53,708 nt of DNA from Candidatus Microgenomates bacterium (GTDB lineage Bacteria > Patescibacteriota > Microgenomatia > UBA1400 > UBA12108): contig QEVC01000004.1 in the NCBI GenBank assembly GCA_003576945.1, forward strand, positions 1 through 53,708, read 5' to 3'. The position numbers were made by a program, and so were the translations under genes. Shown here piece by piece: positions 3,327-40,715 of this stretch. A model generated the notes under the pieces. That model made no database searches. It had not been told where the DNA came from and worked only from the letters and a program-made list of their open reading frames with translations. How positions within the stretch are numbered: the stretch's first letter is position 1; every line of letters begins with the position of its first letter.

Positions 3327-4927
3327 AAATATCCTAGCGTTAAAACCGATAACAGTGAGACTGTATTACTTAGTAATTCAACTGGAGTACTACTCATTTT
3401 AATTTTGTAATTGTGAACGCCTAGCTCCGGCTTGAGCATAATCATACCATCCTCAGTTGGCTGAATCTCGATCTGCTTGGAATTATCTATTGTGACACGC
3501 CAGCCAGGATAATAATTACGAAGAATTGTGACCCTACCCTCACTACTATCAGGCTTATTGTTGATGGTAACATTAATTTTGAGCGGGTCATGGGAGAGTG
3601 CGTCGATCGTCATATTACCAGAATTAACGAGTAACTCGTCATTTTTGTAGCGTTCATGCGGGACACTCCATTTGGGCAATATTTCGGTGCGAAAAGTTGT
3701 ACTAGTTTTGTTGTAGTACAAACGATAGAGGTCTGTATACTCTTTGTTGTCGAGAAATTGTTGTGGGTTACGATAGTTACGAATATTGATGAAGGCTAGA
3801 ACCACAAAAAACAGCATGAGCAGGTAGCGGAATTTTTTTGATTGGAATGAGAGGAGTGCCTGACTCGCAAGTAGTGGAGTCAAGATAAGGGGCATGAAAA
3901 GAAACCGCCAAGGAAACTGGACGGATTGAAGAAGTGGCAAGCTATCCCAGATGAAATAACTCTTGGTGTGCATAAGAAAAATAGTGCCGAGGTAGGCTAG
4001 TATTAAATATAGATTGGAAAGCGTCGGAAATTTCCAAATAATTGCTAAAATTCCTAAGAGCGCCAGAGATAGCTGTGCTAACCCCAGCTGAAAGGACATC
4101 CCATCGTTGTCACCTGGCAAGGAATACCAGTAATCCCATTTACTATATAAAAGTTGCTTGAGGGCTATGAAATGTTGATCAAAGCGAAAAGTTAAATCCT
4201 TATATGCGAAAGAATAGAGTAAATTCTTTTGGGTGATCATCGGGATGATAAAGAACGCACCAATGCCAAATGAGATTAAGAGACTAGCGAGTGCGCGCTT
4301 GAGTGATGTTTTATTGGTTATCATGTATCCAAACATAAAGGCAGCAAAAAGAATACCTAGGAAGTTGTGAGCAAGTAAGACACCAGCGAGCGGGAGGGGG
4401 TGATACCACCTTAGTTTAGTATTATTTTTCTTTAAGTTCTGATAGCTATACAAGACCCATGGCATGAGACCAATGGCGAGAGTCTCACCAAGCGTACCAC
4501 GCACAAAAATGTTTAAAAATTGATAAGGAGTTAAGAGAAAGATGAGCGCGCCAAAAAGACCAAAGCTTCGCCCACGAGATGACAGTAGTAGATACATCCC
4601 GAGCCCTCCAAAAAGATAAGAGGCGATGGTAACTGCCTTGAGGGACCACATAGTGCCTATTACCACTGAAAGAAGGGAGCTTAGATAATAAGGTAGAGGG
4701 TAAACAAAGCTAAAGAGTGGGATACCAAAGCCTTGGTCAAAATTACCGGCCCAGCGGAGCGGGAAATGGCCGAGCTTGAGCATCGAAAGCGCCTCTTCGG
4801 TACGATAGATGTGAAAGATACCATCATGGGAGAGATACCAACCTGGTCTTAACAGGCTGGAGGCTAAAAATAAACCAACAACTAAGACAATAAGCTGGCA
4901 AGAATACTTTCTCAACCAAGTCTTCAT
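3278..4927 (-). CDS. PTPS-related/YfhO-like GT-C membrane protein
   Basis: HDGIFH, GFGIPLFSFVYPLPYY, VRGTLGE and QFPWRFL motifs. Start moved to ATG 4927. Confidence 0.75.
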   Translation of the reverse strand: MKTWLRKYSCQLIVLVVGLFLASSLLRPGWYLSHDGIFHIYRTEEALSMLKLGHFPLRWAGNFDQGFGIPLFSFVYPLPYYLSSLLSVVIGTMWSLKAVTIASYLFGGLGMYLLLSSRGRSFGLFGALIFLLTPYQFLNIFVRGTLGETLAIGLMPWVLYSYQNLKKNNTKLRWYHPLPLAGVLLAHNFLGILFAAFMFGYMITNKTSLKRALASLLISFGIGAFFIIPMITQKNLLYSFAYKDLTFRFDQHFIALKQLLYSKWDYWYSLPGDNDGMSFQLGLAQLSLALLGILAIIWKFPTLSNLYLILAYLGTIFLMHTKSYFIWDSLPLLQSVQFPWRFLFMPLILTPLLASQALLSFQSKKFRYLLMLFFVVLAFINIRNYRNPQQFLDNKEYTDLYRLYYNKTSTTFRTEILPKWSVPHERYKNDELLVNSGNMTIDALSHDPLKINVTINNKPDSSEGRVTILRNYYPGWRVTIDNSKQIEIQPTEDGMIMLKPELGVHNYKIKMSSTPVELLSNTVSLLSVLTLGYLWYTNKKNASSKAKSK

Positions 4928-32943: not shown

Positions 32944-34233
32944 CTACCTACCTACACCAATGTATTTAAAACCTGCATTTATAACTGTCTTTGGCTCATA
33001 TTGATTGCGAGTGTCAATAAACACTGGATTTGCTTTCATGAGTTTTGCGAGTCTTGAAAGGTCGAGATTGGTATAGTCGTCCCATTCAACTAGCAAGATA
33101 ATAATATCTGAGTTGGTAGCGGCCGCATAAGCATCTTTAGCATAGACAACTTCTTTGGGTAAAAGTGCTTTTGCCTCATCCACCGCCTGAGGATCAGTGG
33201 CACGAACTGTTGCCCCCTGACTTATTAGCCATGGGATTACAGCCAGGGATGGAGCGACGCGAGTGTCATTGGTATTCTTTTTGAAAGATAGTCCTAACAC
33301 AGCCACTGTTTTATTACTAAATGTTCCGGTCTCTTTTTTAAATTGTTCTAGTTTGCGGCTCACGCGTGCTTCATTGAGTGCATTAATCTTAATAAAGAGA
33401 CTATCTGGTTCGCCGACTTTTTTGGCATACGCCGCGATTTCTTTGACATCTTTAGGAAAACATGAACCACCATAACCGAGACCTGGATACCAATACCCTG
33501 GTCCAATACGACGATCCGCGCCAATTCCCTTAATCACCTCTTCGATGTCGGCACCATTATATTCACAGAGATCGGCGATCTGGTTAATGAAGGTAATACG
33601 GGTTGCTAAATAGTTGTTGGCAGCGTATTTGGTCATCTGAGCACTCTCGGGATTCATGACCAGGATGTTACTAGTTAGTGGCTCGTGCAACTTGGTTAAG
33701 ACTTCTTTAGAAAATTCGTCCTCTACTCCGATTACGACGCGGTCAGGATGGAGGGTATCCTCGACTGCTGTCCCCTCTTTAAGAAATTCGGGAACAGAGG
33801 CCAGATGGAAGACTTTTGTTGTTTTACTGCCAATCAAATCACGAATGTGCTTGTTGGTTCCAGGTGGGACGGTACTCTTAATTACGACAACCGCATTTTC
33901 TTTTAAGTGAGGGGCAATGCTCTCGGCAACACTCTCGACAAAGCGAAGATCAGCAGAGCCATCGGGAGCGCTAGGGGTGCCCACCATGATCATGACAACG
34001 TCAGAGTCGGGCACTGCGAGGTGGTAGTCGGTTGTAAAAGTAAGATTGCCACTCTTTTGAGTATTGATGAGGAGCTCAGATAGACCAGGTTCAAAAAAGG
34101 GTACGACTCCCTCTTTTAATTTGGCGATTTTGTCTTCGTCTATATCTAGGCCGATAACCTTGTTCCCTAGTTTGGCTAAGACTGCGGTCGTTACTACACC
34201 GACAAAACCAGTTCCAATACAGGTAATTTTCAT
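32944..34233 (-). CDS. ugd: UDP-glucose 6-dehydrogenase
   Basis: GTGFVG, VGTP, KSTVPPGT, PEFLKEG and GGSCFPKD motifs. Start moved to ATG 34233. Confidence 0.9.
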   Translation of the reverse strand: MKITCIGTGFVGVVTTAVLAKLGNKVIGLDIDEDKIAKLKEGVVPFFEPGLSELLINTQKSGNLTFTTDYHLAVPDSDVVMIMVGTPSAPDGSADLRFVESVAESIAPHLKENAVVVIKSTVPPGTNKHIRDLIGSKTTKVFHLASVPEFLKEGTAVEDTLHPDRVVIGVEDEFSKEVLTKLHEPLTSNILVMNPESAQMTKYAANNYLATRITFINQIADLCEYNGADIEEVIKGIGADRRIGPGYWYPGLGYGGSCFPKDVKEIAAYAKKVGEPDSLFIKINALNEARVSRKLEQFKKETGTFSNKTVAVLGLSFKKNTNDTRVAPSLAVIPWLISQGATVRATDPQAVDEAKALLPKEVVYAKDAYAAATNSDIIILLVEWDDYTNLDLSRLAKLMKANPVFIDTRNQYEPKTVINAGFKYIGVGR

Positions 34234-34341
34234 ACTCCGATTATGATAGCACCCGAGGCTGTTATTGGCTACGCTTGCCGAAAGCAAATTTCTGTTGATC
34301 CCTATATCGCCTAACGTATGGTGTGTATGCGAGGTTTTGCT

Positions 34342-34560
34342 TTAAATTTTGAGAAATTCCTCGACTGTCATCTCACATTGTCTGAGAATTGCGCGTAAGG
34401 CACCTTTCGGGATATCTCGGCTATGCAAAGCTACCGTAGACGCACGACCATCCGGATGAATAAGTCTAGCGTGACTACCAGTTTGCCGTGAAATCTTAAA
34501 TCCAGCTTTTTCTAACTTCTTGACTACTGCCAGTGGTTTGAGAACTGGGAGTTTGGGCAT
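34342..34560 (-). CDS. hicA: HicA-family toxin (mRNA interferase)
   Basis: LEKAGF..RQTGSH...H..DIPKGALRAILRQ; 72 aa. Confidence 0.9.
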   Translation of the reverse strand: MPKLPVLKPLAVVKKLEKAGFKISRQTGSHARLIHPDGRASTVALHSRDIPKGALRAILRQCEMTVEEFLKI

Positions 34561-34561
34561 A

Positions 34562-34849
34562 CTAAACGGCAAATCTGGTATAGGGAGTAACCTGGAAAGG
34601 TACCTGGGTATTAGTCACCAATTCTTCGTTAGGCTTATCAACGGGAATTTCTTTATGTTCTTTTTGCAAACACTCGACATGAAAGGCGATAGTGCTCTGG
34701 ATATTATCGAGTGCTTCTTGAGGGGTAGGCCCATCGTCGACCACACCTAGAGTGGGACAATATGCAACATAGCACGCTTTTTTGCTACCCAGGCTTTTAT
34801 CAAGGCGTAATATTACACGATAGTCGAGAACGGTCTTTTGTTGTTTCAT
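34562..34849 (-). CDS. hicB: HicB-family antitoxin (short form)
   Basis: YVAYCPTLGVVDDGPTPQEALDNIQSTI...EIP. Start moved to ATG 34849, behind extended -10 TGCTATACT. Confidence 0.85.
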   Translation of the reverse strand: MKQQKTVLDYRVILRLDKSLGSKKACYVAYCPTLGVVDDGPTPQEALDNIQSTIAFHVECLQKEHKEIPVDKPNEELVTNTQVPFQVTPYTRFAV

Positions 34850-35029
34850 AGTACTTGGAGTATAGCAAAAATCGGGAAAATATAAAGGCAAATTGTGGGC
34901 GAACGACTGCAAGGAGTGGAGCCGCATACACGCTAGTTAGGTGACCCGAGCGGAATGTGGCAAAATGCTCCCCTGCCACACGAAGTGAGAGTGCAACGGG
35001 GTGCGAGTGAAACGAGCAAGTTACAAACT

Positions 35030-35488
35030 TTACGATCTATTTATTAGCTCGGACAATGGCGGAACGCCATAGTCCTTTCGTTCTTGGTCTGATGTTTTGG
35101 GATCGTAGTCGCAGATTATTCCTGTGGCATTATTAAATTGGGTTCCGAATTTCTGTTTTTTACCTTGAGATACGAGCCACCTATCCAGACTGGCGGCATA
35201 CAACCACTTCGTTACGTTGGAACCCAATTTAATTGCCTTTTGAGCGTACTCATGCGCCAGTTTGTATGTGGCGGGAACATCAGACCATGAATGCATGAGC
35301 AATAAACAGGCATAATGACAATTCCATATTTCATTTTCATCTAGTGTTGGAAGAATTGTATTTAACACCTCTTGCCGATGAATATCGTTTTGTTTGAGTT
35401 GATCCTCGGATAATTTGCCTTCGTCAAATAGCTGACGATCACTTTTATCACTTAAATACAATTCTTCCAACTGTAAATGGATTGTCAT
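35030..35488 (-). CDS. Hypothetical helical protein (DUF6624-like C-terminal motif), cassette gene
   Basis: 152-aa ORF with LYAASLDRWLVSQGKKQKFGTQF...ERKDYGVPPL; family recalled, not verified. Confidence 0.6.
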   Translation of the reverse strand: MTIHLQLEELYLSDKSDRQLFDEGKLSEDQLKQNDIHRQEVLNTILPTLDENEIWNCHYACLLLMHSWSDVPATYKLAHEYAQKAIKLGSNVTKWLYAASLDRWLVSQGKKQKFGTQFNNATGIICDYDPKTSDQERKDYGVPPLSELINRS

Positions 35489-35510
35489 TATGAGTAAATT
35501 TTGTAATTAC

Positions 35511-35627
35511 GTCTAACGTATGGTGTGTATCTGATGTTTGGCGGACTTATAATGGATTATACTCACAAATCCGCCTGATATGGGAGAACGAGTGCAACGA
35601 AGTGAACCAGATACACGCTAGTTCTAC
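35511..35627 (-). repeat. attC-like site (117 bp, no gene in loop)
   Basis: GTCTAAC-gta-TGGTGTGTATCTG ... CAGATACACGCTA-GTTCTAC; inner GGCGGA/TCCGCC stem. Confidence 0.75.
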
Positions 35628-35722
35628 GACCCGAATGGAGCGAAGTATAATCTGAAAGCTCTTAATACTCCGCGGAATGAGAGTGCAACGCGATCGAGGA
35701 GCGTAGCGACGAAGACGTAATG

Positions 35723-35935
35723 CTACTCTGAGGAAGAACCTTCTTCATGCTCTAGCCAAGGGCCATCTACAATTATCTTGCGAAGGATCCTCATTTTATC
35801 TACGGAGAGTCTTTCTAACTGTTTCAGTTGAGATTTAAACTCCTCGTTAGTCGCTTCACCTTGGTATCTAACATAATCCTGAGCAAGTCTTCCCTCCTTG
35901 GCTAGAGACTCAGCTATGTCCATTAAGTTTGCCAT
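35723..35935 (-). CDS. Small hypothetical helical protein, cassette gene
   Basis: 70-aa ORF with upstream AAAGGAG; fills the space between two sites. Confidence 0.7.
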   Translation of the reverse strand: MANLMDIAESLAKEGRLAQDYVRYQGEATNEEFKSQLKQLERLSVDKMRILRKIIVDGPWLEHEEGSSSE

Positions 35936-35967
35936 ATTTCTTACTCCTTTCTGAGTAGCATTATGTC

Positions 35968-36409
35968 GCCTAACGTACAGCGTGTATGCGAGGTTATTAA
36001 GTTTTTGATACCTCCTCTAATATTTGCCTAAGTTTTCTAGATTCTTTCATGGCCTCCTCCACTTTTTCTTGAGTTATGGATTTGCTAAGCAGGATTGGAA
36101 TAATGCGAGACTGGTGAGCGATGAAACTATCGAGAGGCATAAGGGCACCGCCATGTTTTGACCAAGCCTCCTTTGCACCCTCCCAATTTTTGATTGAGGC
36201 ATCGATCACCAAAGTCTCTCGCAACTTCTTAAATTCATAATGCTTAGAAATCCATACCGTGATAATTGAGGCCATGAAACCTATGAGCGAACCTCCCAAT
36301 CCTGCGATTAATGTAGTAAGCTCTGGTGTCATGATGATAATTGTATCAAAAACTAAATAATCTGGGCGAACGACTGCAAGGAGTGGAGCCGCATACACGC
36401 TAGTTAGAT
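35968..36409 (-). repeat. Expanded attC-like site (442 bp) enclosing a 111-aa ORF
   Basis: GCCTAAC-gta-CAGCGTGTATGCG (35968-35990) pairs with CGCATACACGCTA-GTTAGAT (36390-36409). Confidence 0.7.
35997..36332 (-). CDS. Hypothetical protein with N-terminal TM helix
   Basis: MTPELTTLIAGLGGSLIGFMASIITVWI. Start moved to ATG 36332, 7 nt after extended -10 TGATACAAT. Confidence 0.7.
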   Translation of the reverse strand: MTPELTTLIAGLGGSLIGFMASIITVWISKHYEFKKLRETLVIDASIKNWEGAKEAWSKHGGALMPLDSFIAHQSRIIPILLSKSITQEKVEEAMKESRKLRQILEEVSKT

Positions 36410-36507
36410 GACCTGAGCGCGAGGTGATATGATCCCCCGATCACCTCGAGCGAGAGTGCAACGCGGTGCGGAGTGAAACGGAGCAAGTTAGCAACTCTCA
36501 CTAAAAA

Positions 36508-36852
36508 TTAGTTAATCTTTTCGAAGCCGTTGAAGTGAGGCTTATCGTCGTTGAATACTTCTATAACTTTATATCTTCCTTTTGTCCAGACCTCGCCAGC
36601 TTCTAGATAGTGAGTAGCGTCGAGGATGATAATACTAGCTTTGGGACGGGATAAAACTTGATTGCCTTGTGTCTCTAGGAGCGGAAGTTCGCCGTGCAAC
36701 CAATACAACCTCTGATCTTTTTTGAGAAAGGAATAGGTTTGGCCAACCTCTAACTTTTCGGGGATACATTCCTCTATTTTTCGGTTGCCGGCATGAAATT
36801 CCGCGACATTGCGTAAAGCGAGGTCTGGATTGTATTCAACGACGATACCCAT
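36508..36852 (-). CDS. Hypothetical protein, cassette gene
   Basis: 114-aa ORF; TATAAT just upstream; enclosed by a perfect 14-bp inverted repeat. Confidence 0.75.
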   Translation of the reverse strand: MGIVVEYNPDLALRNVAEFHAGNRKIEECIPEKLEVGQTYSFLKKDQRLYWLHGELPLLETQGNQVLSRPKASIIILDATHYLEAGEVWTKGRYKVIEVFNDDKPHFNGFEKIN

Positions 36853-36898
36853 ATATGTTGATTATAACCCTTCCTTGATTGTGAGAGTTGCTAATTTC

Positions 36899-37018
36899 AT
36901 CTAACGGGCACTGTATATCTGACGTTGGACGGGTTGATAATTGAGTTTATTGTACCCTAACCCGTCCAATGTGGGTCGAAGGAGTGCAACGACTGAGCCA
37001 GATATACAGTAGTTGTAC
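36899..37018 (-). repeat. attC-like site (120 bp, no gene in loop)
   Basis: ATCTAAC-ggg-CACTGTATATCTG ... CAGATATACAGTA-GTTGTAC; inner 14-bp stem at 36922-36935/36959-36972. Confidence 0.75.
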
Positions 37019-37248
37019 GACCCGAAGCCCACACGCTAAAATCACTCAACTTAAAGCGGGTGGGCTGAGAGTGCAACGAGGTCGAACGACTGCAAGGAGT
37101 GAGATGTCTATTTGTTCCTTAATTCAGTTCGCGCGCGCTTTTACATGTACCCTGTATTCATTTTCAGCTCAGTGTAGAGGGGTTAGGGGTGAATACACTG
37201 AGCTGAATGCTCCCCTAGTCTCCAACTCTGGTGGATATGTCCTATAAC

Positions 37249-37277
37249 TTGACAAAAAGCTATATATCTGGTATGCT
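37249..37277 (+). promoter_or_regulatory. Sigma70 promoter TTGACA-17-TATGCT with extended TG
   Basis: Consensus -35 and 17-bp spacer; both boxes are conserved in copy 2 while the spacer varies. Confidence 0.8.
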
Positions 37278-37284
37278 ACCAAAT

Positions 37285-37475
37285 GTTGTAGTAGTCTGCC
37301 ATGCTGCAAATAGATTGCTATTTCCCAGCGTGAATGAACCAACTATAACTGCACCTTAAAATGCGGAAGTTATCTCCTTTGCCAAGTGGGTAATTTTGTG
37401 GATATTGTCGTGTCTACAAAAATACCCATTTGGGTAGAAAAACGTTTTTCTATTCTGTTCTACAAAAGGAGATAT
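37285..37475 (+). ncRNA. Putative structured leader RNA, copy 1
   Basis: Nested stems GTTGTAGT/ACTATAAC, CATGCTG/CAGCGTG and AAATAG/CTATTT; long hairpin 37382-37433; anti-SD TATCTCCTTT. Confidence 0.55.
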
Positions 37476-37478
37476 ACC

Positions 37479-38063
37479 ATGTTCAAGAAAGCCCCCCGTA
37501 AGGAAGATGGATTGGATCTGTTTGCTCGCGCACTCGGAGCCAAATCCGGATCGGACGCCATTCTCAGACAAGAAGCTGACGGTCAACGCTCGTTCGTAGG
37601 TAGCGACACGCTCCCAACCGAAATGAGTGCTGATGATCGCACTGCTCTCGAAGCCGCAGGCGTTGTGTTCGGCGAAGTTGTGCCAGGCGATGACTTGTTC
37701 CAGTATGTTCAGCTCCCCGCTGGATGGACCAAGCGTAGCACGAGCCACTCGATGCACAATGACCTTCTCGATGAGAAAGGTCGCAAGCGTGCAGGCATTT
37801 TCTACAAAGCCGCGTTCTACGACCGCAACGCTCACCTCTACTGTGTGCGCCGCTTCGGCATCAACCTGGACTATGACCAGCTCGAGAATGGGATTGTGCT
37901 TGTGCAGGTGACTGACTGCGATGAAGTGGTTTACTCCACTAATCCTGTTCCGTTCGAAAAGAGCGAAGAGCGCCTTGCACGTGAACAGGCATTCGAAGTC
38001 GCCAAGTCCTGGCTGAACAGCAACTATCCCGAATGGGAAAACGCCGCCGCCTACTGGGACTAA
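37479..38063 (+). CDS. Hypothetical, probably phage-type protein (cargo 1, 194 aa)
   Basis: Strong SD AAAAGGAG. LPAGW...HSMH..LLDEKGRKRAGIFYKAAFYDR is recalled from phage hypothetical proteins (unverified). GC is higher than in the flanks. Confidence 0.75.
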   Translation: MFKKAPRKEDGLDLFARALGAKSGSDAILRQEADGQRSFVGSDTLPTEMSADDRTALEAAGVVFGEVVPGDDLFQYVQLPAGWTKRSTSHSMHNDLLDEKGRKRAGIFYKAAFYDRNAHLYCVRRFGINLDYDQLENGIVLVQVTDCDEVVYSTNPVPFEKSEERLAREQAFEVAKSWLNSNYPEWENAAAYWD

Positions 38064-38095
38064 TTCCTCACCTTCCGCAAGGTGCAAAACGCTCG

Positions 38096-38148
38096 ACCCC
38101 TCCGGTCACGTCCACGTAAGTGGAAAGATTGGAGGGGTGTTTTGTATC
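38096..38148 (+). terminator. Terminator-like hairpin, copy 1
   Basis: ACCCCTCC...GGAGGGGT followed by GTTTTGTAT. Confidence 0.55.
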
Positions 38149-38352
38149 TATTAACTTTCGCTATACAAAGTGGCAATTTTAGCGCTTTAATTAACAAAAG
38201 TCGCCGTAGGCGACACCTCATCCCCCTCTAAAAATAATATACCTTTACATGTACTCTGTATTCCATTTCAGCTCAGTGTAGAGGGGTTAGGGGTGAATAC
38301 ACTGAGCTGAATGCTACCCATACCATCACCTCTGGTGGATATGTCCTATAAC

Positions 38353-38381
38353 TTGACAAATGACTACATATCTGGTATGCT
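38353..38381 (+). promoter_or_regulatory. Sigma70 promoter TTGACA-17-TATGCT
   Basis: Same as 37249-37277, offset by 1104 bp. Confidence 0.8.
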
Positions 38382-38388
38382 ACGAGAT

Positions 38389-38570
38389 GTTGTAGTAGTC
38401 TGCCATGCTGCAAATAGTTTGCTATTTCCCAGCGTGAAAGAACCCACTATAACTGCACATTAAAATGCGGAAGTTATCTCCTTCTATTGTGGGTAGCACT
38501 TTTGGTATCAAAAGTGGTACTAAGTGTGCTACTCACAAGTAGTGAAACCCCAACCCACCCAAAAGGAGTA
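38389..38570 (+). ncRNA. Putative structured leader RNA, copy 2
   Basis: Same stems as copy 1; a hairpin of different sequence at the equivalent place (38487-38538); CTCCTT anti-SD. Confidence 0.55.
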
Positions 38571-38577
38571 CTGAAAA

Positions 38578-38886
38578 ATGAACGATAAAGTTATTACCCT
38601 CCCGAGCGCTGATGAAATGATTGCTCGCCTGATGAAAGTTCAGGATGATGAACTCGCCCAGTCACTGTACAGGAACGTTGCGCAGCGTGCTGGCGAGGAG
38701 AAGGTTGCGGCTGGCATCATTATGATGTTCAGTCTTGGCATCTACGATGTCTGCCAGGGATACCCTCCCATGATGCAGAACCTTCTCTCCTACAACATCC
38801 CCGCGTGGGTCGACGCCCTTGTTGATGACAAGGAAGTTGCCGATGCGGCTAAGGCTTTCTGGAAGGAAGCTACGAGCAAGAAATAA
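38578..38886 (+). CDS. Hypothetical protein (cargo 2, 102 aa)
   Basis: SD AAAAGGAG at 38561-38568; no similarity to cargo 1. Confidence 0.75.
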   Translation: MNDKVITLPSADEMIARLMKVQDDELAQSLYRNVAQRAGEEKVAAGIIMMFSLGIYDVCQGYPPMMQNLLSYNIPAWVDALVDDKEVADAAKAFWKEATSKK

Positions 38887-38984
38887 GTCTTCGCGAGGTC
38901 AAATATTGAAACCACTAGCTGGGCGACGTAAGTCGACGGGTTACTCCGTTATCAGTTATACTTCCGCAAAAGAAGTGCAGACAT

Positions 38985-39054
38985 CCCCTCCGAATAGTCG
39001 GAAATTGTTGCGTAAGTTGCAACGTTTTTGATTATAGGAGGGGTGTTTTGTATC
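38985..39054 (+). terminator. Terminator-like hairpin, copy 2
   Basis: CCCCTCC...GGAGGGG followed by TGTTTTGTATC. Confidence 0.55.
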
Positions 39055-39168
39055 ACTTTAGTTAATGAAAGTCGCCGTAGGCGACACCTCATCCCCCTCT
39101 AAAAATAATATACCTTTACATGTAATGTAAAAGCGCGCGCGAACATATAAATAGTACAAATAGATATC

Positions 39169-39207
39169 GTACAACTAGTGTGTATGCGAATAATGTTCGC
39201 ATACACA
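39169..39207 (-). other. attI-like recombination site
   Basis: Core GTTGTAC on - strand, next to a perfect 12-bp hairpin TGTGTATGCGAA-taatg-TTCGCATACACA, 21 bp upstream of the integrase start. Confidence 0.65.
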
Positions 39208-39228
39208 GACATTTGGTAGAATATTAGC

Positions 39229-40035
39229 ATGTGGAAAGAACGATTACAACTATATATGCAGGCTCGTGCATACAGCAGACGAACCATATCTGCGTATATT
39301 GATTCTGTCGATCGGATAGTCAAGAAAACGAGAAAAGATCCAGCTAATATAGATGAGCAAACGCTAGAAAAATACCTGAGCCAACTATACAGCTCTGGCA
39401 TGTCGCCCTATACCCTCAACCAGCACCACATGGCGTTAAAATTACTTAAGACTGCGGTACTTGGTCAGTCGTGGGACCCTAAGTTTGGCTATGCCAAAAG
39501 ACCAAAGAAAATCCCCGTTACACTAACTAAGAATGAGATCTCAAAATTAATAGATTCGACTGCTAATCCAAAACATCAGTTAATACTGGCTCTCGCATAT
39601 GGCGCAGGCCTACGGGTCAGCGAAATAATCGCCCTTAAAGTAATGGATATCGATTTTGAGAACATGCGGGTTGTAGTACGGAGTGGCAAAGGACAAAAAG
39701 ATCGAACGACAGTCCTCCCTGATAAGTTAGTCACCACTCTCAATTCGTATCTCGCAGGACGCAAAAAAGACGACCATGTCTTTTTGAGTGAGCGAGGTGG
39801 GACACTAACTACCAGGACGCTACAAGCGATATTTGCTAAATCGCTAAATCGTGCCGCGATTAATAAGGCCGCCACCTTTCACAGTCTCAGACACAGTTTT
39901 GCCACTCACCTCCTTGAGCAGGGTGTAGATATTAGGTATATCCAGACACTGCTCGGCCATGCTAGTATTACGACAACTCAGATTTATACTCATGTTGCGA
40001 GTACTGCACTACATAATATCAGGAGCCCATTATGA
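39229..40035 (+). CDS. IntI-like tyrosine recombinase (268 aa) lacking the integron-specific insert
   Basis: YGAGLRVSE (R), GKGQKDR (K), HSLRHSFATHLLE (HxxR), LLGH, TTQIYTHV (Y); C-terminal RSPL as in IntI. Confidence 0.9.
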   Translation: MWKERLQLYMQARAYSRRTISAYIDSVDRIVKKTRKDPANIDEQTLEKYLSQLYSSGMSPYTLNQHHMALKLLKTAVLGQSWDPKFGYAKRPKKIPVTLTKNEISKLIDSTANPKHQLILALAYGAGLRVSEIIALKVMDIDFENMRVVVRSGKGQKDRTTVLPDKLVTTLNSYLAGRKKDDHVFLSERGGTLTTRTLQAIFAKSLNRAAINKAATFHSLRHSFATHLLEQGVDIRYIQTLLGHASITTTQIYTHVASTALHNIRSPL

Positions 40036-40715
40036 GGATCGACATTATTACCCTTTTTCCAGAATTTTTTGATGGCCTAAAAAAACACAGCATTGTGGGT
40101 CGCGCGATTGATAATGAGAAAGTTGAGCTACACACACACAACTTACGTGAGTGGGCGGTAGATAGCTATGGAACAGTAGATGATCACCCCTATGGTGGTG
40201 GGCCAGGAATGGTTTTGAAAGTAGATGTCATGCATGCGGCAATAAAAGCAGTAAAAGAGAAAGTTAAAGATTTTGATGGGAAAGTCATCCTGCTTACACC
40301 ACAAGGCAAAGTCTATAAACAAAAAAAGGCACTAGAGCTGGCGAAAGAAAAAAATATAATCTTGATTTGTGGACACTACGAAGGATTTGACGAGCGGATC
40401 AGAGAGTACGTGGACTTAGAAATATCGGTTGGAGATTATGTACTGACAGGTGGGGAAATCCCTGCGATGATCCTAGTTGATTCAGTATCGAGATTATTAC
40501 CAGGAGTACTTGGAGATGATGCTAGTAGCCATGATGAATCACATAGTGAAGGACTATTAGAATACCCACAATATACGAGGCCAGCCAAATATGATAATAA
40601 GGGAGTGCCAGAAATACTATTATCTGGCGATCATCCAAAAATTGATGCCTGGAGAAAAGAGCAAGCGATAATTAAAACTCAAAAAAGAAGGCCAGACTTA
40701 CTTAAAACGAAGTGA
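40032..40715 (+). CDS. trmD: tRNA (guanine37-N1)-methyltransferase
   Basis: VDDHPYGGGPGMVL, CGHYEGFDER, GDYVLTGGE and LLEYPQYTRP motifs. Confidence 0.97.
   Translation: MRIDIITLFPEFFDGLKKHSIVGRAIDNEKVELHTHNLREWAVDSYGTVDDHPYGGGPGMVLKVDVMHAAIKAVKEKVKDFDGKVILLTPQGKVYKQKKALELAKEKNIILICGHYEGFDERIREYVDLEISVGDYVLTGGEIPAMILVDSVSRLLPGVLGDDASSHDESHSEGLLEYPQYTRPAKYDNKGVPEILLSGDHPKIDAWRKEQAIIKTQKRRPDLLKTK

Follow-up and report, generated by a model that had tools for sequence, protein, structure and literature searches.

We analysed a stretch of 53,708 nucleotides (the window, meaning the whole of it) from a Candidatus Microgenomates bacterium (contig QEVC01000004.1, assembly GCA_003576945.1), which belongs to a genome of 825 kb (33 contigs, 98% complete). 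The window contains an array of small gene cassettes that ends beside the gene of a tyrosine recombinase, and our subject is the cassette next to that gene (36899-39175), in which two cargo units stand one behind the other. A first-pass annotation, made from the letters alone, had described these units as non-autonomous, site-specific elements that accumulate in tandem at the tip of a perfect hairpin. The features on which the analysis relies are the following (all given on the + strand):

36899..37018: attC-like palindrome of the cassette itself (repeat families D2-D5, inverted pairs I7 and I24, and direct reading), with the box ATCTAAC at 36899-36905, the inner repeats ACTGTATATCTG at 36910-36921 and CAGATATACAGT at 36999-37010, and the box GTTGTAC at 37012-37018
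37064..37101: conserved box GAGAGTGCAACG + GGTCGAACGACTGCAAGGAGTG, present after every attC-like site of the array (D7, 4 copies; D4, 5 copies)
37103..37146: left outer arm (inverted pair I1), perfect part 37127-37146
37140..37149: first copy of the core TTTACATGTA, consisting of the tip of the left arm and a 3-nt loop
37150..38243: unit 1 (cargo compartment)
38244..38253: second copy of the core, at the unit 1/unit 2 junction, with neither arm nor attC between the units
38254..39114: unit 2 (cargo compartment)
39115..39124: third copy of the core, with the right arm directly after it
39125..39168: right outer arm (pair I1), perfect part 39125-39144
39169..39175: boundary box GTACAAC, followed by an attI-like stretch to 39228 with the half palindrome GTGTGTATGCG/CGCATACACA (direct reading)
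39229..40035: tyrosine recombinase gene (268 aa), XerA-like/IntI-like and lacking the extra domain of IntI; trmD follows

The core TTTACATGTA occurs at 37140, 38244 and 39115 and has no further copy in the window, against 0.14 copies expected from shuffled sequences, none of which (0/100) reached three. Its spacings of 1104 and 871 bp define unit 1 and unit 2, which share a left block (37140-37379 versus 38244-38483, 219/240 identical without gaps, 91%) and a right block of 57 identical nt (38197-38253 and 39068-39124, with a likeness that extends to 77 nt at 92%), and which are unrelated in sequence between these blocks. Comparison of the sequences thereby confirmed the repeats, the unit lengths and the shared blocks that had been annotated before. 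The unit open reading frames (ORFs), of 194 aa (37479-38063) and 102 aa (38578-38886), lie on the + strand, all remaining short ORFs of the array lie on the - strand, and the two unit ORFs have no similarity to each other, exactly as described. These two copies of the unit are the only ones in the genome, and both are inside the array.

The limits of the cassette were read from its boxes. GTACAAC at 39169-39175 is the exact complement of GTTGTAC at 37012-37018, and ATCTAAC at 36899 likewise complements the GTTAGAT of the preceding attC-like site; the cassette therefore spans about 36905 to 39175 and owns the attC-like site on its left, and 36899-39175 is one cassette of an integron-like array. 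Its outer arms are exactly complementary over 20 nt (37127-37146 and 39125-39144, 20/20) and form an inverted repeat that reaches 44 nt outward at 80% (37103-37146/39125-39168). The complementarity that had been reported is thus real, but its meaning is a different one: the 20-bp "perfect hairpin" is the outer stem of the cassette's own long palindrome, and not a landing pad in a cassette without an ORF. An excised circle would put the arms around attC and lengthen its stem, which would explain why arms are complementary within a cassette and different between cassettes; in relatives the arms vary from cassette to cassette, each pair still being complementary. A cassette of this kind comprises an attC-like palindrome with ..YTAAC and GTT.. 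boxes, a GAGAGTGCAACG box, two complementary outer arms and, between the arms, a cargo compartment that is opened by a hairpin with the loop AGAGGGGNNRGGGGTGAAT and closed by the same G-rich motif in inverted orientation, which on the + strand reads as a CCCCCTCT box. The window cassette has two such compartments in a row on one attC-like site. Our preferred reading, to which we give about an even chance, is that of an integron-like cassette with two stacked compartments, in an array served by the neighbouring XerA-like recombinase, the compartments being exchanged or stacked at the level of the core.

The signals within the two units are:

37163-37207: boundary hairpin of unit 1, with a 14-bp stem and the 17-nt loop GAGGGGTTAGGGGTGAA (pair I17)
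37249-37277, + strand: promoter-like site of unit 1 (TTGACA-17-TATGCT), then a conserved leader
38097-38145 (+ strand) and 38200-38214 (minus strand): terminator-like hairpins of unit 1
38214-38230: right box of unit 1, CACCTCATCCCCCTCTA
38267-38311: boundary hairpin of unit 2 (pair I19)
38353-38381, + strand: promoter-like site of unit 2, then the leader
38985-39051 (+ strand) and 39071-39085 (minus strand): terminator-like hairpins of unit 2
39085-39101: right box of unit 2

Both promoter-like sites agree with the consensus at 10/12 positions, with TG, and head a module that runs in the order promoter-like site, leader with a stem-loop, Shine-Dalgarno sequence, ORF, and G+C-rich hairpin with a run of T; each unit has, on the opposite strand, a further hairpin, likewise with a run of T, that faces transcription from the recombinase side. 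By these signals each unit looks like an insulated expression module that would read its ORF against the array from a putative sigma-70-like promoter.

Read on the other strand, the right box is about the same G-rich motif as the loop of the boundary hairpin, and we looked for both ends of the compartment outside the window. The left block used as a query gave matches in 14 of the 23 other genomes of the family and in none of 77 genomes from 18 other families of the order, and most of these matches consisted of arm, core and hairpin only. The hairpin loop pattern occurs in 13 of the 24 family genomes, so that the expectation of further copies with the same boundaries and other cargo was borne out. 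A scan for the loop over one genome per species returned at least 126 matches in at least 120 loci, those listed being mostly from candidate phyla radiation (CPR) lineages that belong to many classes, with some metagenome-assembled genomes (MAGs) that carry other labels. The loop pattern alone is short enough for chance matches (hundreds are possible in the collection by our own arithmetic), and therefore the flanks were tested; the following counts hold for the matches listed. At least 11 of the 14 stem pairs were formed in 89/126 matches; on all 114 distinct sequences, chosen by the loop alone, the stem was paired for 79.3%, a value that 0/500 shuffles reached, versus 51.2% when shuffled, and slid partners were paired for 32-54%. 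Thirteen of the 14 stem pairs vary on both sides (covariation). The partner arm closes the cargo in 59/96 of the stem-bearing hairpins, and a recombinase homologue was recovered in 10/120 loci, in all ten downstream of the hairpin and on the same strand, which is also its place in the window. In 9 loci of distant CPR genomes a GAGAGTGCAACG-like box precedes the boundary hairpin by about 80-125 nt, and in eight loci (L179, L202, L233, L248, L204, L226, L170 and L237) the order is: attC-like palindrome, GTGCAACG box, arm, hairpin (100-250 nt past the palindrome) and then cargo. Three of these (L179, L202 and L248) read on to a CCCCTCT box and an arm complementary to the arm before the hairpin. 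As far as these sequences tell, cassettes of this type in many CPR lineages usually have their cargo bounded by the hairpin together with the CCCCCTCT box. Since arms, hairpin and CCCCTCT box belong to the normal build of a CPR cassette, the units are cargo compartments and not parasites; the earlier idea of cargo units that are stackable and site-specific is plausible and in part supported, by tandems in three genomes and a core that is the tip of the left arm, the units being parts of the cassette itself.

The cargo reads from hairpin to box in 17 of 22 family units, like both window units, and lies on the opposite strand in the three distant loci that were read to the box (L179, L202, L248); the boundary motifs are therefore not tied to gene direction, and we take them to act on DNA. 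A comparison by eye of loop and right-box variants revealed no convincing covariation between the two, and among viral contigs there were 8 loop matches, of which 3 had stems and none a recombinase, with no sign of a phage vehicle. Two further observations were made on the motif. It occurs with stems of 7-8 bp in contigs labelled Thermoplasmata and other archaea (L194 at 4586 and 4685, two copies 100 nt apart; L212 at 55; L264 at 4124; L177). Identical hairpins (stem TTTTTCTTTTTCCA) are found in L188, L191, L193, L204, L226 and L231, whose labels are different CPR classes and Gammaproteobacteria, which means either horizontal spread of cassettes or binning errors.

Within the family of the window (24 genomes) the junctions were read in 22 units. 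In 15 of these a direct repeat of 9-12 nt stands at both ends and equals the tip of the unit's own left arm plus the loop; among the remaining units, three have ends of different kinds (G004a, G006, G002) and the others are truncated at the end of a contig or belong to a decayed array (G014). Five core types were distinguished: TTTACATGTA, TTTTTATCT[AT], ACTTTCTGTTAC, CTTTTTGTTCC and ACTCTGCACTTG. The same 10-bp boundary, which was expected elsewhere, is accordingly found as a rule (the repeat equals the unit's own left-arm tip) but not as one sequence, there being five types of variable length. The rule also holds in the distant locus L248, whose recombinase is 45% identical, there with ACTTTTTATTT. 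In 7 genomes the type-1 core stays as it is and the outer arm changes on both sides (GCGCGCGCT, GCGCGCAAT, GCCGGCAAC, GGGCGGC and others). Tandem junctions, consisting of right box, core and hairpin with neither arm nor attC between, occur in three genomes (G000, G016, G014), and arms of two origins are joined across a unit in G004b, G004a and G006. In G004b a GCGCGCGCC left arm and a GCCGCCTACAAAC right arm enclose one core type, a chimeric state that would fit recombination at the core. A constant core with changing arms, chimeric arms and tandem junctions together form the pattern that recombination within the core would produce.

Independent metagenome data bear on the same junctions. Of the words sampled from 36900-39300, 78-94% are present in 20 runs that come from 9 studies. 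Among the Logan contigs of other runs, those of X1, X7 and X16 (ending at 37191) span the left junction, one of X7 (38224-38295) spans the joint between the two units, and those of X1 and X7 span the right junction between unit 2 and the arm, in each case with no difference, and X7 contigs tile 36932-39175 in overlapping pieces with zero differences. For X7 the uncovered parts (34000-34843, most of 35055-36742, and 39275-40300) are no evidence that these flanks are absent. One contig each of X7 and X10 departs from the window just after GTACAAC (39175) into an attC-like sequence (GTGAAGCATATCTGATGT...) in place of the recombinase side; these contigs are short, and they suggest that the whole cassette with both units also adjoins a different attC in another array context, as would be consistent with recombination at the G/TT of the box. 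Furthermore, 38539 is joined to 38985 in an X10 contig and is also the point where an X16 contig departs from the window, which represents the flanks of unit 2 with other cargo, and hence homologous exchange on conserved flanks also occurs. A loose end of an X10 contig (CGCGCGCGCT before 38244) was considered as a left arm on another unit; it comprises 10 letters of one contig and was not used as support.

Under our preferred reading the compartments would be exchanged or stacked through recombination inside the core, that is, the arm tip plus the loop. A compartment freed as a circle would bear one core and could enter any hairpin tip, or the end of any resident compartment, that has a matching core, in the latter case giving tandems. 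The possible outcomes would be: i) integration at a hairpin tip; ii) a tandem beside a resident unit; and iii) chimeric arms through exchange between cassettes. The nearest candidate for the enzyme of this step would be the recombinase of the array; the genome also encodes two other tyrosine and three serine recombinases. Whole cassettes would move at the R box, to judge from the contigs that leave the window after 39175. A bolder version, which we regard as a tentative proposal and would sooner doubt than accept, is that the compartments represent a second, smaller mobile tier that loads into the palindrome tip by core-specific recombination, on an integron-like platform that is widespread in CPR and is run by an Xer-like enzyme which has never gained the IntI domain. 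In that case it would offer a natural route for loading, stacking and swapping promoter-bearing ORFs in attC-bearing cassettes and would bear directly on how integron cassettes are made.

Several observations weigh against core-level exchange. In most of the distant CPR cassettes the cargo is not flanked by a direct repeat (for most of the 59 among the matches listed its length is at most 2 nt), which makes the core a peculiarity of the window's family and of L248. The core could have a structural cause, for instance a small hairpin at the right junction; in G021A the right core resembles the right arm more closely than it does the left core; repeat length varies with core type between 10 and 12 nt, and the cores share just a loose T-rich pattern. 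The empty sites that the first-pass annotation anticipated were not found: in the 24 family genomes all seven type-1 tips TTTAYATGTAATRTAAA follow a right box and are thus occupied, there is no empty hairpin, and none of about 35 mapped cassettes lacks cargo. The 22 cargos are all different, except that one protein family recurs with some 50% identity, and therefore no unit was seen at two sites. Likewise, no circle junction was demonstrated, and a circle joint is indistinguishable from a tandem joint. The evidence from public runs consists of short Logan contigs at 90% likeness, with several joint sides below 30 nt. A scan of metagenomes with the degenerate 17-mer TTTAYATGTAATRTAAA matched random AT-rich DNA, with a right box or hairpin in 0/80 of the loci listed, the pattern being too loose. 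Two other loci came up with long perfect palindromes centred on TTTATATGTAATATAAA (L058 1-65 and L099 35-100), at or near a contig end and with no array features; they are probably unrelated.

That two neighbouring cassettes with the same core type have fused, the intervening palindrome, made up of right arm, attC, box and left arm between two 10-bp cores, being precisely lost by replication slippage across the hairpin or by cruciform processing, with no mobility of units, strikes us as rather unlikely, although several facts would agree with it. Long palindromes flanked by short direct repeats are unstable, and their loss can be likened to the precise excision of transposons with inverted repeats that stand between short direct repeats. 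Exactly one core and nothing more is retained where unit 1 meets unit 2, the tandem junctions of G014 lie in a decayed array without arms, and in L269, the one case outside the family in which the right box stands directly before a hairpin (1/93 hairpins among the matches listed), the box abuts the hairpin without a repeat, as plain palindrome loss would leave it. Fusion does not explain, however, why 15 of the 22 units bear the core at both ends as single units, and the fully complementary outer arms of the window (20/20) would require two parents whose arms were identical, yet no two of the four hairpin-bearing cassettes of G004 have the same arms.

A process in which homologous recombination or gene conversion on conserved flanks shuffles the ORFs, the end repeat being inherited structure and no site-specific step at the level of the unit taking place, is in our view decidedly unlikely as the whole account. 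In its favour, units 1 and 2 of G000 and the unit of G023 share the left block at 88-93% despite unrelated ORFs, a 35-nt stretch before the right box is common to several units, the X10 and X16 contigs have the same flanks around other cargo, and a promoter/leader block precedes other ORFs in G012. It accounts for swaps of cargo, but not for tandems in which different cargos are joined with a single core at every junction, nor for the match of each of the five core types to its own arm tip, nor for chimeric arms joined at the core.

The proposal that the units are non-autonomous transposable elements, similar to miniature inverted-repeat transposable elements (MITEs) or palindrome-associated transposable elements (PATEs), which target hairpin tips and are mobilised in trans by an HUH, an IS110/IS1111 or another transposase, is very unlikely. 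It draws on 3-4 Y1_Tnp (IS200/IS605-type) transposase-like genes in the genome, on a TTAC about 18 nt before the hairpin foot at the left end, a spacing that we take to be close to the IS608 geometry, and on unit ends that are imperfect inverted repeats. The units are, however, present in two copies only, both in the array, and hairpin and box are fixed cassette parts beside recombinase genes across CPR; moreover, TTAC is missing from the other core types and a direct repeat of 10-12 nt is unexpected for IS200/IS605, and the unit ends do not fit the IS200/IS605 rules. The Y1 genes (C23:35772-36450, C9:88859-89221 and C2:6907-7266; L166-L168) are three different single genes, mutually unlike at the DNA level, and not repeated insertion sequences. 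Two are immediate neighbours of each other and come right behind ORFs which, by their N-termini, resemble the genes of ribosomal proteins S12 and S7, and the Y1 genes look like single domesticated copies. An IS110/IS1111 passenger was rejected, since PF01548 has no match in the genome, which at 98% completeness thus shows no IS110-type DEDD gene, and control genomes did respond. A PATE was rejected because the right hairpin (GTCGCC-GTAG-GCGAC) is unrelated to the left one (stem of 14 bp, loop of 17 nt), the ends carry a repeat of 10-12 nt, and the two copies are confined to the array; and a MITE, or cut-and-paste element with a target duplication of fixed length and arbitrary sequence, because repeat length is 10, 11 or 12 nt according to core type, the repeat is always the tip of the own palindrome and T-rich, and the ends are weakly inverted. 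Finally, an assembly artefact or one-off duplication has next to no chance, for although repeats of 240 and 57 nt could mislead an assembler, the stretch recurs in the 20 runs mentioned above, all three junctions are crossed by contigs from other runs, the two cargos are unrelated, and the same build is found in relatives.

As to the cargo itself, the unit ORFs have no match to a Pfam, NCBIfam, PADLOC or PHROGs family, transposases included, in agreement with the earlier observation that the units hold no transposase, and the protein atlas gave no usable match. The 194-aa ORF has 518 metagenome homologues at E<=0.001 and its protein was not found in 23 family genomes or in 400 sampled genomes of the phylum, and the 102-aa ORF has 6 homologues and its protein was not found in the 23 family genomes. 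G+C is 0.51-0.56 in the unit ORFs (37500-38100 and 38550-39000) versus 0.38-0.46 around them, and two cargo ORFs of relatives are also at 0.51-0.52. Relatives carry a small-domain methyltransferase, an alpha/beta hydrolase and many proteins without a family, a mixture that is usual for cassettes. Rfam 15 gave no match at gathering score in the whole window, and at E<=1 on 36850-39250 a single miRNA match at chance level (20.5 bits versus a threshold of 90). The promoter-like site, with parts of the leader (37241-37469 and 38345-38577; leader stem-loop CATGCTG...CAGCGTG), also precedes other G+C-rich small ORFs in G012 (L030 150-400; L031, minus strand, ~4316-4390), a genome with no boundary hairpin and no match to the array recombinase; the block seems to be an expression signal that variable genes of the family have in common.

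The rest of the array (34289..36898) consists of plain cassettes split by attC-like palindromes, with the ORFs on the - strand:

34342-34927, - strand: HicA/HicB-like pair
35030-35488, - strand: plain-cassette ORF
35723-35935, - strand: plain-cassette ORF
35997-36398, - strand: plain-cassette ORF (133 aa)
36508-36852, - strand: plain-cassette ORF

The box pairs of the attC-like sites are GCCTAAC...GTTAGGT, GTCTAAC...GTTCTAC, GCCTAAC...GTTAGAT and ATCTAAC...GTTGTAC, with complementary inner repeats (D2, D3, D5), so that, as judged by reading, the cassettes are parted by imperfect palindromes with RYYYAAC ... GTTRRRY boxes, as in integrons. The plain cassettes have shorter arms around their ORFs and no junction repeats by eye, which was judged from pairs I8 and I9 and from reading only. 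Two attC-like palindromes (35948-36426 and 34289-34959) have genes between their halves, namely the 133-aa ORF in the first, with inverted arms of its own (21 nt, pair I4), and the HicA/HicB-like pair in the second; an X10 contig joins 35995 to 36359, and in X16 contigs an ordinary short loop, GCCACACGCTAAAATGAATTATACTCTAAGCGTGTGAGC, replaces the 133-aa ORF. Cargo can therefore also occupy the centre of an attC-like site.

The 268-aa recombinase matches Pfam Phage_integrase at 4.5e-45 and passes NF040815 (225.7 bits, cut-off 220), the model 'site-specific tyrosine recombinase/integron integrase' of archaeal XerA type, and fails TIGR02249 (215 bits, cut-off 265). Its alignment to VchIntIA (2a3v) splits into two parts (query 7-180 on chain 10-186 and query 196-268 on chain 245-317), and in the region of the IntI-specific domain 15 query residues face about 58 chain residues, so that the additional domain around patch III by which classical integron integrases are recognised is lacking here. 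In relatives, the homologue of the array recombinase in G005 (C10:32456-33064) matches from residue 66 only and has an in-frame TAG, so that this gene is probably broken, and in G002 and G006 a unit stands next to trmD with no recombinase.

No paper on CPR integron-like arrays or on the hairpin motif was found; subscription journals and supplements were outside the search, and the arrays may therefore be listed somewhere as attC clusters. The searched CPR names are absent from the accessible parts of the IntegronFinder 2.0 paper, and the accessible parts of one paper on CPR gene exchange contain neither integron, integrase nor cassette. The boundary hairpin with its box is apparently a widespread cassette boundary signal that has gone undescribed, and the hairpin motif offers a practical handle for finding such cassettes in metagenomes of unculturable organisms.

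Various known systems resemble parts of the locus. In Xer-dependent modules (the pdif modules of Acinetobacter plasmids, and integrative mobile elements exploiting Xer recombination, IMEX), modules lie between short palindromic Xer sites and are exchanged between replicons. The window likewise has discrete gene modules bounded by short palindromic sites, but its unit ends show no evident dif-like site of 28 bp (11-6-11), the sites being hairpin tips with a centre of 1-3 nt and the modules lying inside an attC-bearing cassette. IS1111-attC elements, group IIC-attC introns, IS200/IS605 and PATEs insert at a defined place of a hairpin, and their non-autonomous copies are mobilised in trans; the window differs in that it has no IS110-type gene, no intron and no known RNA family, and in that its end hairpins are mutually unlike, a direct repeat of 10-12 nt is present, and copies occur in arrays only.

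Integrons are the best-known gene-capture platforms, and the locus bears on two questions about them, namely the origin of IntI from Xer-like recombinases and the way in which genes become cassettes. Archaeal integrons extend integron-like platforms beyond classical bacteria, and the window recombinase passes the archaeal XerA-type model; according to the accessible text of Ghaly et al. 2022 (PMC9668308), in which CPR or Patescibacteria do not occur, archaeal IntIs retain the IntI-specific additional domain, unlike the window recombinase. The closest likeness concerns chromosomal integrons: the tyrosine recombinase gene lies at the array end and is divergent from the array; the cassettes contain mostly unknown, sporadic genes, including a toxin-antitoxin pair; the palindromic sites have ..YTAAC and GTT.. 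boxes; and short contigs of other samples leave the window at the box, as would be expected if the cassette adjoined a different attC there. Unlike chromosomal integrons, the window has a recombinase without the IntI-specific domain that scores best as XerA-like, a much longer palindrome (box, outer arms and boundary motifs), units with their own promoter-like sites (by their match to the consensus) that run against the array direction, where classical cassettes are promoterless and expressed from one promoter close to the integrase, and two compartments per attC. In its array and its attC-type boxes the system is like an integron; since the IntI domain is lacking and the units carry promoter-like sites, we did not file it as an integron proper. 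The locus is real and represents a variant of integron-like systems, in which, as we infer, single units would move. Its array is integron-like and yet its recombinase is still Xer-like, its palindromes are much longer than a classical attC, its cargo is marked, in many CPR lineages and a few other MAGs, by a hairpin with an almost invariant loop and covarying stems, and the short core at the unit ends, together with the tandems of this one family, suggests a separate step of cargo loading or stacking.

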